A stretch of 64,000 nucleotides of DNA from a virus (IMGVR_UViG_3300005253_000193:32001-96000); one strand, 5' to 3'; numbered from the stretch's first letter, positions 52,938 through 57,714 are shown. Numbers and translations: made by a program. The notes: generated by a model from the sequence alone, not told the origin.

Positions 52938-53939
52938 TCACATCTTGAAGGACGGAGCCTGCATCCACACCCCATCCTTGAACCAAGTATGGGTGGTGAC
53001 TAGGCTGATGTAATGAACCCGCGCCCCGTCGACGACGATCTGTCCAACGAACTGATCGTTCTTGATCGTGATGAGCACAACGTCGGGGAAGGTGGTAGAT
53101 GCTTCCTCCCGCTTCTCCGTGAATTCATCGTCCAGGAGGCCGATGATGATGTTTTTCGTGTCCTCCCGTTCCGCTTTGGAGACGGATTCAAGCGCATCCC
53201 CCAAGCCCCCCAGATTGTCGACTTTGGGGAGAGGACGACGCTGCGGCTCCTTGCCGATGCCCAGCTTGATTTGACGGACTGCTTCACTTCCATAGCACTC
53301 CCTGATGAGAGCTTCCCAAATCTCACGGAAGTACCGTCGGGAGGGGGAACGCTCAATGCCAACCAGCCGCCCACCGATGATGATAAGAGCCCCAACCTGT
53401 TTGGGCACACGCTCGAACTCGGCCACAAACAAGTCCAGTTCCTTTTGGAACTTGTCCATGAAGTCGATCAGGTCTCCAGGGCCGCTTAGTCCAGCCTCGG
53501 TCTTGAAGTTCCTGATGTTACCCCAGATGGCGGAGAAGTCGGGGTTGGCATTGGTGAGAGCTGCTTCCCTGAGGGACCAAGGGAGCAAGGAAAACTTGTG
53601 CTCACCACGCGGGATAGTTCCGCCTTGGGTTTCCTGGACACACAACGCATTGTCGAAGACTCGCCTGCCCTTGACGAAGCCACCCTTGCGGAGAGCATGA
53701 TCTTGAGCTCTCTCGCGGACGAGGTAGGCGGTTTGTGGCGGGACCAGGATCTCCTCGTCCGGGGACCTTGCGTCGATGTTCAGGTTTCCATAGGTGCTGT
53801 TATGAACCGTGGCCCCCTCAGGGCTGACAAATCTGTCATCCTCCAGGTCACTCAGCAGGGGAATGACCTGCATGATGCCGACGGTCTGCATCCGCCCAGG
53901 GGTGCATCCCCTGAGCATTTCGGAAATGTTGCGGGTCAT
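52938..53939 (-). CDS. ARPP-like (DUF6569/ARPP-1 or ARPP-2-like) protein
   Basis: 'MQVIPL', 'AQDHAL', 'CVQETQGG', 'FVAEFE.VP.QVGA', 'GIE..PS'; family recalled from memory. Confidence 0.55.
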   Translation of the reverse strand: MTRNISEMLRGCTPGRMQTVGIMQVIPLLSDLEDDRFVSPEGATVHNSTYGNLNIDARSPDEEILVPPQTAYLVRERAQDHALRKGGFVKGRRVFDNALCVQETQGGTIPRGEHKFSLLPWSLREAALTNANPDFSAIWGNIRNFKTEAGLSGPGDLIDFMDKFQKELDLFVAEFERVPKQVGALIIIGGRLVGIERSPSRRYFREIWEALIRECYGSEAVRQIKLGIGKEPQRRPLPKVDNLGGLGDALESVSKAEREDTKNIIIGLLDDEFTEKREEASTTFPDVVLITIKNDQFVGQIVVDGARVHYISLVTTHTWFKDGVWMQAPSFKM

Positions 53940-53960
53940 GATGTTACCTCCTCTTATCGG

Positions 53961-54128
53961 TTAATTCGCATCTGGCGCATCATCGTCGTCGCCGGTCAAC
54001 CAATTGAGCATGGCGACCAAACCATCTTCGTAACTCTTACCTTCGTAATGAGTTCCTTGGTCCTGGCCTTCATTTGCCCAATTCGCTACCCTATCGATCT
54101 CATCATCAGAGCGTTTGATGACACGCAT
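53961..54128 (-). CDS. 55-aa acidic protein (not in the ORF track)
   Basis: MRVIKRSDDEIDRVANWANEGQDQGTHYEGKSYEDGLVAMLNWLTGDDDDAPDAN; GGGAG SD; fills the gap in the operon. Confidence 0.7.
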   Translation of the reverse strand: MRVIKRSDDEIDRVANWANEGQDQGTHYEGKSYEDGLVAMLNWLTGDDDDAPDAN

Positions 54129-54140
54129 TTAACGTCTCCC

Positions 54141-55778
54141 CTATTCAAACCACCCAAGATCACCAAGCCGATGCTCCTTGATGGTGCTGGTGAGGATCAT
54201 GGTGATAGCTTTCTTGATGTCCGTATTGATGAACAACTTCAGGGCGGAACTCACCAAAGCTTCGGGGCTGACTACGGGTATGGCTGCGCTGACCCCACCA
54301 AGGACCCGGATACCCTCGGACTCGGCCCCTGTAACCGGCGAGACTTGGATCACAGGCGTATCTATGCCCATGTCCCTAACTCGCTCCAGGGTGTCGCCGA
54401 AGCGGCCAGCCGGGGCATTTTCGTAGCCGTCGGTAATGACGAAGACTGCATCGGGTTCGTGCTCCAGGAGACCAACCAAGGAAAGTGCCAGATTGGTATC
54501 ACCCTTGGGCTGAATAAGGGCACCCTGACCATTCCCTCCGACGTAGTGGACAGTGGACAGATTCGACGCTGCACGCAATACATCCTCGACTGCCAGAGCG
54601 ACGGCAATGGGATGAAGCTTTTGGGTCTTATGTCCATACATGGACGCCGATGCATCGACTATGATACCGACGTTCTCATAATGGAAGGGAAGCGTTTTGG
54701 CAACGTCCTCAGCCTTCTTGTCTAGGGCTTTCCTGATCTCAGCCGTCATGCCCATCTCGTAGGCGTAGATGTACAGCTTGACGGCATCATGCTTGAGAGG
54801 ATCGAAGGCAACCTCGACACCTTCCCGTTTGGCTTGGGCCTGTACGTTGATACGTTGCTTGGAAGACATCTGGTCCTTAGCCAGCTCAAGGACTTCCCCA
54901 CTTTTCACTTCCTTGTGGAACTGTCCACGGATTCCCTCCAGGACCTCTGGGGGAAGCCTTTCACCCTTGCTCAGATCATTACGCGCCTTGCGTACAGCCG
55001 CAATGATTGGAGCATCAGGATTTTCCGTTACATAGGGAACGGAAGATCCCAAGGCGTAGGCGATGGCCAAACGAGACTCGATGCCGGGGGAAGGAAAACC
55101 AGGAATATATCTGTAAACATTTTCCCTGATCAGTTTGGTCTCATCCGGCTCCCACTCCTGATAAGGGCGTTGAAGAATGGAGCGAATGACACCGGACAAC
55201 TTCTGGCCCCACACATGTCGGAGGATTGCCCCGTACTTGCGTCGATACCTGACTGCCCTCATTTCGAGGGAACCCACCGCCCCGGTATGGAGAAGGTGGC
55301 GGAGGATCAGCTTCCTCGTCCGCATGTTGTTGATCCTGGCCTGCCCAGCCATGACAAACGTCCTGAGCTGGCGCGGGACGGTGATCCCGTCGCACAGATA
55401 TTCCAGGAGATTCCGCTCCATCTCGGCGTGATGCTTTTTGGTGGTCTGAAGCATCCCTCCGCTGTGCTTATCCGAAAGCAGGCGAAGGATGCCTTGCTGC
55501 CTCGACCTGTCCATGACACCCGGCAGGGCCAAGACCGCACCATATAGGAGGCGGTCGTACAGGAACATCTTTTTGTGCGCCTCCAACTCGGCGGCTTCCT
55601 GTTCCTCCTTGGAGTTGTAGAAGGTCGCTCGGCCCTTGGCGGTGATCACGAAGTCCAGAAAGGACTCCAGGTCCTTTGAAAGACTGACGAACTGGCTGTT
55701 GGGAAGATGGATGGGAACCATAAGCTGGCTCCTGACGGCGGGCAGAGACGCGGACACTGCGGGGATGTTCTGGTTCAT
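54141..55778 (-). CDS. Helical N-terminal + vWA domain protein (Ro60/TROVE-like architecture)
   Basis: MIDAS motifs 'IVDASASM', 'GDTNL', 'ITDGYEN'; about 370-aa basic helical N-terminus; 545 aa, similar in size to Ro60/Rsr. Confidence 0.65.
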   Translation of the reverse strand: MNQNIPAVSASLPAVRSQLMVPIHLPNSQFVSLSKDLESFLDFVITAKGRATFYNSKEEQEAAELEAHKKMFLYDRLLYGAVLALPGVMDRSRQQGILRLLSDKHSGGMLQTTKKHHAEMERNLLEYLCDGITVPRQLRTFVMAGQARINNMRTRKLILRHLLHTGAVGSLEMRAVRYRRKYGAILRHVWGQKLSGVIRSILQRPYQEWEPDETKLIRENVYRYIPGFPSPGIESRLAIAYALGSSVPYVTENPDAPIIAAVRKARNDLSKGERLPPEVLEGIRGQFHKEVKSGEVLELAKDQMSSKQRINVQAQAKREGVEVAFDPLKHDAVKLYIYAYEMGMTAEIRKALDKKAEDVAKTLPFHYENVGIIVDASASMYGHKTQKLHPIAVALAVEDVLRAASNLSTVHYVGGNGQGALIQPKGDTNLALSLVGLLEHEPDAVFVITDGYENAPAGRFGDTLERVRDMGIDTPVIQVSPVTGAESEGIRVLGGVSAAIPVVSPEALVSSALKLFINTDIKKAITMILTSTIKEHRLGDLGWFE

Positions 55779-55804
55779 GGTCAGTTCCCTTTATCCAAAC
55801 AAGA

Positions 55805-55881
55805 GGCCCGGTAAGGTCGTTCGTCAGTTTTGCGTAGACACTCCTGAAGTGTATGCTGTACTGACAGACTAGTTCCGGGCC
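55805..55881 (-). ncRNA. Structured RNA unit 1 (Y-RNA-like stem with mini hairpin payload)
   Basis: GGCCCGG/CCGGGCC end stem, AACUAG/CCUUA internal loop, GUCAGU/ACUGAC stem, UACAG, hairpin ACAC-UUCAGGA-GUGU. Confidence 0.75.
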
Positions 55882-55904
55882 ACTTGGTCGTTCATTTTAT
55901 TACA

Positions 55905-55985
55905 GTCCGGTAAGGTTGTTCGTCGTGGTGCGTCATTGATCGACTTCAACGTCGAGGATGCTGTAACGGCGATCTAGTTCCGGAC
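55905..55985 (-). ncRNA. Structured RNA unit 2
   Basis: GUCCGG/CCGGAC end stem, same internal loop, CGCCGU/ACGACG stem (one mismatch), UACAG, hairpin UCGAC-GUUGAA-GUCGA, payload ends ACCA. Confidence 0.75.
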
Positions 55986-56010
55986 CTTTTTTAACAATTG
56001 GTTTAGGCGA

Positions 56011-56132
56011 GCCGGTAAGGATGTACGTTGTATTTGGTGGATGTGATTGGAATCGAACCAATTACACACTGATTGAAGTCAGTTGCTCTACCGAATGAGC
56101 TACATATCCTGTAACAACGTTCTAGTTCCGGC
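56011..56132 (-). ncRNA. Structured RNA unit 3 enclosing a complete tRNA-like cloverleaf
   Basis: GCCGG/CCGGC end stem, same internal loop, ACGUUGU/ACAACGU stem, UACAG. Confidence 0.8.
56035..56109 (-). tRNA. tRNA-like element (75 nt, encoded CCA) with non-canonical 6-nt anticodon loop CUUCAA
   Basis: GGATATG TA GCTC ATTCGGTA GAGC A ACTGA CTTCAA TCAGT GTGTA ATTGG TTCGATT CCAAT CACATCC A CCA. Confidence 0.85.
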
Positions 56133-56210
56133 CCTCCCAGCAACAAAGGAGTTGAAAATGGCGGGAGCCACTTCCATTGGGATGGTCTGCCAAAACCACC
56201 ACCAAAAATG

Positions 56211-56240
56211 ATACTACTACGCCCCCAAATGCTTTGGCAA
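56211..56240 (-). promoter_or_regulatory. Putative sigma70-like promoter for the RNA array/vWA operon
   Basis: TTGCCA-18 bp-TAGTAT on the minus strand, with a very AT-rich tract upstream (56245-56275). Confidence 0.45.
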
Positions 56241-56277: not shown

Positions 56278-57714
56278 CTAATCCACATCTGACTTGGGGC
56301 ATACTTCTTCAAGTAGATCCCAGTAATCGCTCATCATCATATGGGAACTAAGAACAAACTGACCAAGTGTATAGTTCTGGGAAATCAGAATTGTAAAGTT
56401 ATCCATGTCGGTTCTTGCATTGGACACGAACAGGCGGGCCAAACCCATCCTTTTCTCTTGTGGTGACTGACTATATGTTATGACACAATCAACAGTTGCT
56501 ACCTTGGAAATGTCTTCCGCCGCATGTATGTCACGCACCTTGGATGATTTTACTCCTTCCTTGCTAGACTGAGAAGCCACCACGGCAGCAACATTTAATT
56601 CTACGGCCAGTCCCCTTATATCGACATAGATGTTCCCAAGGTCCCTCCGATAGTTTCGTGGGTCAATCTTCATGAGATCCGGATAATCAATGAGCAGCAG
56701 GTCTGGCCTCCACCCTTCTATTACACTAAGGAGGTCTAGGAATCCTCTCAACTCATTGACAGTTAGTTGTCCCGTTGGGAATTGCTTAACCAATAATTTC
56801 CTTTTTAAACGGTCTTCCCAGAAGTCCATTTCGTCCCTTATGTGCTTCTCAATTTCAGGGTCTTGAAGGGCTATATCTGGATTTATTTTCACACGTTCAA
56901 AGTCCAAGAACTCCCCGGTTCTGCTATCTTCCTTGAGAATTGTATTTACTATGGGTTCCCTTGAGCTTCCATATCTTTTGGGAATAGAGAATAGACTCTG
57001 AAAATACCTTCCCATAATTTTCTTTTCAGACATTTCCATGGTAACATGACAGACGCGCTTGCCTTGCAGCATGGCCATCTTTGCCAAATGCATCAGCCAC
57101 CAAGTTTTTCCTCTTTTCATGAAGGCTATAAGCAGAAGGATTTCCCCCGGCGACGGACCAAGCTCGTGGAAGTCAAGTTCCTTAATACCAGTAGCGATAG
57201 CTTGGCTGGAAGCATCCAGGAAGCTCAGACTCTTGTTCAGATCTGTGAACCAAGTACCGGGGGTAAACAAATCAGCTCTCGGCTTTGCTACCTTGGTGAG
57301 TATTTCCTCCACTTCGGTTAAGTTTTTGTCGTCTTCCTCCTGTAGCATTTCGCCAGCTTCAATAATACTGGCCTTGAGCCGCTGTCTTCTGATGAAGTCG
57401 TTGACACGATTGAGGGTATAGTCTGCCTGAACCGAGTCCTGGGATTCGTAAAGATTTTGTAGGATGAGATCGTAGGCTGCCGCCTTGCGTTCATTTTTTC
57501 CCTCAAGGATAGTATCAAATACAGTGGCAAGCTCTCCTTCAGGAGCTTTACCCTCGGTATCAAGGAAATCATATATCCCCGCCGCAACCTGTCTATATTC
57601 CCCCTCGAAGAGGGATAGTTCAACCGTATTGCGAATGATCTTCCCACTCTCATAGTCAAATGCGAGCAGGATGAGAAGGTTCTGCTGTAGTAGATTGCCT
57701 AGCCCGTCAGGCAT
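56278..57714 (-). CDS. dnaB: Replicative DnaB-like helicase
   Basis: 'IATGIKELD', Walker A 'AFMKRGKT', 'TMEM', 'IDYPDLM', 'ASQ', 'AEDISK'. Confidence 0.85.
   Translation of the reverse strand: MPDGLGNLLQQNLLILLAFDYESGKIIRNTVELSLFEGEYRQVAAGIYDFLDTEGKAPEGELATVFDTILEGKNERKAAAYDLILQNLYESQDSVQADYTLNRVNDFIRRQRLKASIIEAGEMLQEEDDKNLTEVEEILTKVAKPRADLFTPGTWFTDLNKSLSFLDASSQAIATGIKELDFHELGPSPGEILLLIAFMKRGKTWWLMHLAKMAMLQGKRVCHVTMEMSEKKIMGRYFQSLFSIPKRYGSSREPIVNTILKEDSRTGEFLDFERVKINPDIALQDPEIEKHIRDEMDFWEDRLKRKLLVKQFPTGQLTVNELRGFLDLLSVIEGWRPDLLLIDYPDLMKIDPRNYRRDLGNIYVDIRGLAVELNVAAVVASQSSKEGVKSSKVRDIHAAEDISKVATVDCVITYSQSPQEKRMGLARLFVSNARTDMDNFTILISQNYTLGQFVLSSHMMMSDYWDLLEEVCPKSDVD

Follow-up and report, generated by a model that had tools for sequence, protein, structure and literature searches.

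Ro60-type ring proteins and the small Y RNAs that accompany them have been described in both bacteria and phages. In the closest described system, that of Rsr with YrlA and YrlB (Salmonella, M. smegmatis and mycobacteriophages; Chen et al. 2014, PMC4201824; RF02553), a protein of about 530 aa made up of a ring and a vWA domain is encoded next to one or more small RNAs on the same strand, which combine a terminal stem with a conserved internal loop and a tRNA-like part. The Ro60 of Thermus phage phiLo (PDB 9KOP, 9L5Y; PMC12135203), identified by its authors as a Ro60 homologue, has two Y-like RNAs carrying the CGAA motif (Yrl1 and Yrl2) just upstream of its gene, and in the Rsr-Yrn1-PNPase particle (RYPER) of D. 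radiodurans the Y RNA tethers the ring to an effector. We have analysed a phage locus that bears comparison with all of these, namely the minus-strand stretch between positions 52,938 and 56,240 of a 64,000-nt window (bases 32001-96000 of the 105,963-bp virus record IMGVR_UViG_3300005253_000193, CheckV completeness 100%; the DNA of the stretch is listed in marine-sediment metagenome runs, which may be its source, and in no RNA run). Three tandem RNA units are followed here by genes encoding proteins of 545, 55 and 333 aa. We consider it probable that the stretch encodes a three-part ribonucleoprotein (RNP) module of the Ro60/Y-RNA kind, from a branch that our literature searches found described nowhere, and the module is best read as a new and widespread branch of Ro60/Y-RNA particles rather than as a categorically new system.

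Like Rsr and YrlA, the module has a ring and vWA protein, adjacent same-strand RNAs with a terminal stem, conserved internal loop and tRNA-like part, and a distribution that takes in both bacteria and phages; the canonical Rsr of Myxococcota also occurs in tRNA arrays. However, the ring of the module has no detectable sequence similarity to Rsr, and the constant part of its RNAs, referred to here as the handle, carries the motif AACUR...UACAG...UUA instead of GNCGAA. This handle meets the tRNA mimic at the acceptor end or the variable loop, and does not replace the anticodon arm as in YrlA. The inserts that it carries, referred to here as payloads, are swappable, the units occur in arrays, and there is an obligatory ARPP-1 partner and no RtcB/RtcA neighbourhood. 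The phiLo locus shares the phage-encoded ring protein with RNAs just upstream, but lacks an ARPP partner, and its description mentions no tRNA-mimic payloads. RYPER resembles the module as we propose it in that an RNA would link ring and effector, and the 6-nt ‘anticodon loop’ in the tRNA-like part of Yrn1 (PMC4201824) is a likeness to unit 1 of the window; the effector of RYPER is the host PNPase, bound through the RNA, whereas the module has a dedicated, always accompanying ARPP gene. The ARPP-1 family is shared with the ARG-centred ADP-ribose systems (Iyer, Burroughs, Anantharaman, Aravind 2022, PMC9503650), in which ARPP is listed with ARG, HIRAN, WYL and deacetylase partners and vWA domains are named among the chaperone partners, but no Ro60-like ring or associated RNAs are described there. 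A survey of jumbo phages mentions canonical TROVE only, and full-text literature searches returned no paper linking ARPP with TROVE/Ro60, or Ro-type proteins with tRNA arrays.

The relationship of the 545-aa protein (54141-55778, minus strand, stop TAG) to Ro60 emerged from its predicted fold. Searches of Pfam, PHROGs, NCBIfam, PADLOC and the PDB sequences returned nothing for this protein, either as a single sequence or as a 41-sequence profile, and sequence methods detect the vWA domain alone, in some homologues only. The AlphaFold2 (AF2) model built on the 41 homologues (predicted local distance difference test score, pLDDT, 91.2; predicted template modelling score, pTM, 0.89) has a helical ring at approximately residues 27-362, followed by a Rossmann-type vWA domain. 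When this model was compared with the PDB using Foldseek, all 13 significant matches were to Ro60, Rsr or TROVE proteins (E 2e-8 to 3e-4, probability 1.00), and the top 10 chains in VIA-align were all Ro60 or Rsr (Z 11.4-18.4, about 400-410 residues). Xenopus Ro60 gave Z 18.4 (root-mean-square deviation 4.2-4.3 Å over about 410 residues, model residues 35-519), RNA-bound human Ro60 Z 17.7-17.9, the phiLo Ro60 Z 15.2-15.4 (about 400 residues) and D. radiodurans Rsr Z 11.9; chains matching the vWA part alone scored at most 10.1. The MIDAS motif (metal-ion-dependent adhesion site) is complete, with D375, S377, S379 and D450 invariant and T428 nearly invariant among the 41 sequences. As modelled, therefore, the protein has the architecture of Ro60 and is a very diverged structural cousin of it, as had been suggested in an earlier model-written note on this DNA (the sequence-only reading), which proposed a Ro/TROVE-like fold. 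The family is large; a set of 1.84 billion proteins contains 738 of its cluster representatives (50% identity). It ranges over IMG/VR contigs (many >100 kb), Planctomycetota, Myxococcota, Bacteroidota, Actinomycetota and candidate-phyla contigs.

The RNA units lie upstream of this gene on the same strand. There are exactly three copies of the decamer CCGGAACTAG in the window (56131-56122, 55983-55974 and 55878-55869), each followed by one strand of an inner stem, UACAG, a payload, the complementary strand and CCUUACCGG. The three minus-strand units with a common scaffold, and the three genes at their coordinates downstream, are thus present as the sequence-only reading had described them. In the handle, a terminal stem of 7 bp leads to an asymmetric internal loop (5' AACUAG, 3' CCUUA), then to an inner stem of 8-9 bp and the near-invariant UACAG junction, with A/U-rich spacers flanking the closed terminal stems. 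The terminal stems of units 1-3 are GGGCCGG/CCGGCUC, GGUCCGG/CCGGACU and GGCCCGG/CCGGGCC, and the inner stem, like the terminal one, varies in sequence among the three units yet remains paired. Unit 1 (56008-56135, minus strand; minimum-free-energy z-score -3.4) carries an entire tRNA-like payload, to which the handle is attached at the acceptor end, unit 2 (55903-55987, minus strand) a short payload made up of a hairpin with a 6-nt loop and then GC-ACCA, and unit 3 (55804-55882, minus strand; z-score -3.8) a short hairpin with a UUCAGGA-type loop.

The scaffold is older than the window, because an uncultured phage of 462 kb with a homologous gene pair (39% protein identity) has a unit of the same layout, GGAGAACUAA-stem-UACAG-tRNA-like-stem-UUAUCUCC, about 1.5 kb upstream of that pair. 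A first, regular-expression descriptor of the units was used solely for seed collection, since it demanded pairing and would have been circular as evidence of covariation. The covariance model, R1, was built from 22 units from phage and bacterial loci, aligned with MAFFT. Run without guidance on this alignment, RNAalifold returned both handle helices (terminal and inner stem) together with the D, anticodon and T arms, with compensatory changes at 27 of the 28 pairs; 92.5% of cells were paired as compared with 70.7% in shuffles, the covariation score was 0.202 in shuffles and 0.598 in the alignment, the latter value being equalled by none of 500 shuffles, and in slid controls at most 53% of cells paired. 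Unit 1 is a seed member of R1 (97.3 bits); units 3 and 2 are not, and both were recovered by it (33.3 bits, E 4e-6 over the whole window, and 25.1 bits, E 1.8e-5 with filters off, respectively).

A census of 155 loci, 74 from genomes and 81 viral, gave 200 R1 matches in the former and 350 in the latter, and all 550 were on the gene strand. Of the 64 genome loci having upstream DNA, 52 had a full-length handle upstream of the ring gene, as did 80 of the 81 viral loci. Some 130 loci of phages and bacteria carry the three-part module. The expectation in the sequence-only reading that a covariance model of the scaffold would find it upstream of homologous vWA and ARPP gene pairs was borne out in most loci. 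Searching with nhmmer and the unit alignment recovered near-full-length units in 82 of 148 loci, and was left out of the census because this was far fewer than with the covariance model. Comparison of 109 distinct units showed near-invariance at the A of the 5' loop (97%; family consensus of the 5' strand GGR-A-(C/A)-U-R), at a G-C pair of the inner stem and at one U of the 3' loop (94%), and the junction nucleotides U-A-C-A-G are conserved at 100, 63, 95, 89 and 99%, respectively. The units, encoded beside the gene for a ring protein, thus combine a variable module with a terminal stem that is closed and an internal loop that is conserved. Since tRNA-derived repeats do occur in phage genomes, and the three units of the window stand in tandem, it could be argued that they are selfish repeats or insertion scars without any link to the neighbouring proteins. 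We hold this to be extremely improbable: both handle helices covary, the junction nucleotides are near-invariant, and the matches keep to the gene strand across loci whose proteins are just 26-47% identical, so that chance or selfish repeats are excluded by the strand consistency together with the covariation controls.

The position of the units relative to the genes bears on how they might be expressed. In most loci they lie no more than about 500 nt upstream of the genes on the same strand, and in many they lie 1-3 kb upstream with tRNA genes or open reading frames (ORFs) intervening. In the window, unit 3 stops about 26 nt short of the start codon of the 545-aa gene, with no clear terminator between (the gap of 26 nt in the sequence-only reading was counted from the end of the stem; 25 bases separate the end of the unit 3 model match at 55804 from the ATG at 55778). 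Such proximity would suit repeats that are not free small RNAs but a 5' untranslated region, through which the operon is controlled by its own Ro60-like protein or by a tRNA-related signal. We think a leader of this sort quite unlikely to be the explanation, given the many loci with units 1-3 kb away beyond tRNA genes or ORFs, the occurrence of up to four to six units with differing payloads, and the closed terminal stems between A/U-rich spacers, which resemble excisable modules; it is also compatible with the RNP reading that we prefer, in which the three RNAs are probably transcribed with the operon, or just ahead of it.

The interchangeable payloads on a constant handle that the sequence-only reading had envisaged were seen both between units and between loci. 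At least four payload designs are mounted on the one handle, and many loci have two to six units. The first design comprises normal-order tRNA mimics joined at the acceptor end, and in units from Planctomycetota the inner stem takes the place of the acceptor stem altogether. The second comprises circularly permuted mimics, in which a T arm, a closed acceptor hairpin with CCACCA, a D arm and an anticodon arm follow one another and the handle joins between the anticodon and T arms. Short hairpins and G+C-rich hairpins constitute the third and fourth designs. Examples of permuted payloads are found at L071:1423-1571, L077:3502-3652, L080:3557-3706 and similar sites, where a loop closes the acceptor hairpin after CCACCA and the payload is mounted at the variable-loop position. 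In the set of 109 units the anticodon-like loop is of 7 nt in 102 and of 6 nt in four, and the window loop, CUUCAA, was found again in one other locus. These loops have many identities and several lack U33, which is what a mimic, and not a decoder, would look like.

The tRNA-like payloads invite a different explanation, which is that the handle is a leader-trailer duplex that keeps real tRNAs, or fragments of them, inactive until processing, with unit 1 serving as a UGA suppressor (UCA in its loop) for a phage gene with an in-frame TGA. With the Rfam tRNA model (gathering score 29) the cloverleaf of unit 1 (56035-56109, minus strand) reaches 58 bits, and it has an encoded ACCA; the gene next to the operon (52884-52612) has an in-frame TGA at codon 27, within its match to phrog_16275; and loops of UCA type recur in at least nine, and of UUA type in at least three, of the 109 units. 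However, the cloverleaf has a 6-nt anticodon loop rather than one of 7 nt and an A-C mismatch in its acceptor stem, and so lacks two features of a functional tRNA, and ARAGORN assigns it a 2-base ‘anticodon’. Units 2 and 3 are not tRNAs, and the payloads of many relatives cannot be charged, because the acceptor stem is absent or the payload is permuted with a closed acceptor hairpin. The spread of loop identities and the missing U33 speak against decoding, and TGA is a normal stop codon in this phage, including in the ARPP gene, with long genes free of in-frame TGA. Caged or precursor tRNAs are accordingly an account to which we attach little probability, and we retain that of tRNA mimics displayed on a putative protein-binding handle. 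Unit 1 retains its own anticodon arm, and a protein-binding stem in place of that arm, as in the tRNA-like domain of YrlA, was not found in it. Unit 1 bears no close resemblance to the Lys, Thr or Pro tRNAs of the phage itself, and the possibility that it was copied from one of them was rejected. A search of phage DNA gave a 54-nt tRNA-like stretch as its sole match. The ordinary tRNA genes of the phage are only Lys(UUU), Thr(UGU) and Pro(UGG), located at about 26.8-27.4 kb of the genome (G000:C1), about 60 kb from the module and outside the window.

The third part of the module is the 333-aa protein (52938-53939, minus strand, stop TGA), which belongs to the Pfam family ARPP-1 (PF20208; 76.6 bits, cut-off 27), so that the sequence-only reading of an ARPP-like gene was correct. 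In 140 of the 155 loci the ring gene has a homologue of it immediately downstream, and most of the other 15 are contigs ending there. Across 40 sequences the residues Q18, Y50, Q79, H81, C100, E176 and R213 are invariant, and the AF2 model has a pLDDT of 94.2. Iyer et al. took the conserved Cys and Gln of ARPP to suggest an enzyme (PMC9503650), and the invariant residues seen in our alignment fit this enzyme-like picture. Prediction of a complex between the ring protein and ARPP gave an ipSAE of 0.57, with 0.00 for the best control, contact agreement between runs of at least 78% and a partner pLDDT of at least 84. Of 80 solved complexes, 58 passed the mark used for such predictions, as did 2 of 110 mismatched pairs. 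Passing scores no higher than 0.60, which were obtained for seven of the passing solved complexes and both passing mismatches, are more often wrong than right unless the pair is likely beforehand. The strict operon linkage makes the ring-ARPP pair fairly likely beforehand, and the prediction hints that ARPP may dock on the ring protein. The 55-aa acidic ORF between the two core genes (53961-54128, minus strand, stop TAA; weak match to phrog_6680, E 1.7e-4) had no tblastn match in the 155 homologous loci and was rejected as a conserved third subunit (0/155); it is specific to the phage and outside the conserved module.

The genomic company of the module differs between phages and bacteria. The commonest neighbour in phage loci is a DnaB-like helicase (DnaB_C; 21 of 137 neighbouring ORFs of viral loci), as in the window, followed by AntA-type antirepressors. 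In bacterial loci the protein neighbours are heterogeneous, and many of the loci lie inside co-oriented tRNA arrays. The RNA-repair genes that the sequence-only reading had named as frequent neighbours of YrlA did not recur, in that RtcB, RNA ligases and Pnkp were sought and were not among the recurrent neighbour families; nor did any ARG, Macro or Nudix gene accompany the module among those families. Across the 155 loci ARAGORN called 681 tRNAs, every one of them co-oriented with the gene pair (the strand parsing was checked), and at least 10 tRNAs were present in 21 loci, with a maximum of 39 in 11.5 kb. Near-complete tRNA sets were found in Planctomycetota, Myxococcota and one 192-kb viral contig; those adjoining the module include L131 (34 tRNAs in 6.2 kb), L009 (37), L116, L134, L124 and others. 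In Myxococcota, canonical TROVE loci too have tRNAs on their flanks, as well as YrlA-like RNAs. This sharing of a habitat by both Ro-type proteins supports a functional analogy between them. In Minicystis rosea (CP016211.1, approximately 8.256-8.268 Mb; L120, L161) a canonical Rsr (TROVE + vWA_Ro60) is encoded about 4 kb upstream of the diverged pair, so that a single co-oriented array, of about 39 tRNA genes, houses both Ro-type paralogues. Beside the Myxococcota TROVE genes there are also matches of about 125 nt to the Rfam tRNA model, with a large insertion (L166:396-521, L167:3267-3902, L169:3267-3395 and L173:304-437), and these tRNA-like RNAs look like YrlA-type RNAs that fall below the Rfam YrlA threshold.

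Several of our results weigh against placing the module with Ro60 and Y RNAs, and have to be set against the structural and genomic evidence. The Pfam TROVE models (PF05731 + PF25045) did not match the 545-aa protein (E <= 0.1), any of the 41 homologues (E <= 1) or the six-frame translated phage genome, and the same model does match canonical Rsr genes. In hhalign, comparison with a profile of 10 canonical TROVE proteins gave a probability of 84.8% (E 6.5e-6) over the vWA part only, with a shallow template profile, and comparison with a single canonical Rsr a probability of 4%. Because the profile-profile alignment is confined to the vWA part, the argument for common descent of the ring is one from fold. 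On the RNA side, the Rfam Y-RNA families (RF02553 and RF00019 among them) gave no match at E <= 10 between 55700 and 56300, and the GNCGAA / GGUCCGA motif recognised by Ro60 and Rsr (PMC4201824) is absent from the handle, the 5' strand of which is CCGGAACUAG. Indeed, no Rfam family other than tRNA matches the units even at E <= 10; RF02553 (YrlA) is present in the library and matches beside divergent TROVE genes, which served as a positive control. The lack of a match agrees with the sequence-only reading, in which the scaffold was not recognised as a described family. For ARPP, fold relatives were not found with Foldseek against the PDB at E <= 1e-3, and the best VIA-align Z among 48,161 chains was 3.8. 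Finally, the sigma-70-like match TTGCCA-18-TAGTAT (56211-56240, minus strand, 3' of the DnaB-like gene), which the sequence-only reading had taken for a putative promoter of the RNAs, is weak, at 9 of 12 consensus positions, and is no better than chance, since the region has 3 promoter-like sites where 2.5 are expected from shuffled controls.

We hypothesize that the handle would act as a docking site for the 545-aa ring, by analogy with the Y-RNA stem in Ro60 particles (PMC4201824, PMC12135203), and that the payload would present a tRNA-shaped surface able to recruit or distract factors that recognize tRNA. ARPP-1, with its invariant Cys, His, Gln and Glu, could be the catalytic or effector subunit, held by the vWA/MIDAS domain of the ring, and during infection the particle would act on the tRNA pool, be it for surveillance, for repair or for protection. 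Its association with tRNA arrays points to that pool as substrate or beneficiary, and the location beside replication genes in phages suggests expression together with those genes. A more ambitious form of this proposal, to which we give some room while thinking it unlikely, is a programmable tRNA-directed particle, in which the Ro60-like docking stem would stay constant while phages, and mobile islands of tRNA arrays, exchanged the mimics on it, whether of anticodon arms or of whole tRNAs; the mimics might then soak up host anticodon nucleases or other tRNA-targeting defences, or aim ARPP chemistry, for example ribose-adduct removal or repair, at particular tRNAs. If that were true, the module would represent a new class of RNA-guided counter-defence. 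Should binding of RNA and protein be confirmed, the Ro60/Y-RNA world would be enlarged past the reach of sequence profiles, ARPP would gain its first RNA-linked context and Ro-type particles would be implicated in conflicts over the tRNA pool. The module also bears on the reason for tRNA mimicry by bacterial Y RNAs and on the role of Ro60 particles in bacteria and phages, for it constitutes a natural experiment in which a constant handle is combined with many payloads (whole, acceptor-less, permuted and mini), an obligatory enzyme-like partner and a link to tRNA arrays.

In the phage genome the stretch sits in a replication module, with an SNF2-type helicase downstream and a topoisomerase-family gene and a DnaB-like helicase upstream, all on the minus strand. 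The DnaB-like replicative helicase (56278-57714, minus strand; phrog_19, E 3.9e-46) is directly upstream, and is followed in minus-strand order by the promoter-like site, a hairpin, the three RNA units and the genes for the 545-, 55- and 333-aa proteins. The hairpin (56153-56176, minus strand) lies between the promoter-like site and unit 1 and has 10 bp and a U-rich tail; it matches a terminator-like consensus, of which the number of matches in the region is not above chance, and may be the terminator of the helicase gene or part of an RNA precursor.

On the other side of the operon, the small gene directly 3' of ARPP (52884-52612, minus strand) has its in-frame TGA at 52806-52804. The 91-aa read-through product matches phrog_16275 across residues 2-66, and the frame therefore continues over the stop. 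A nonsense mutation, an error in the assembly or read-through could each account for this TGA, and its correspondence with the UCA in the loop of unit 1 may be a coincidence.

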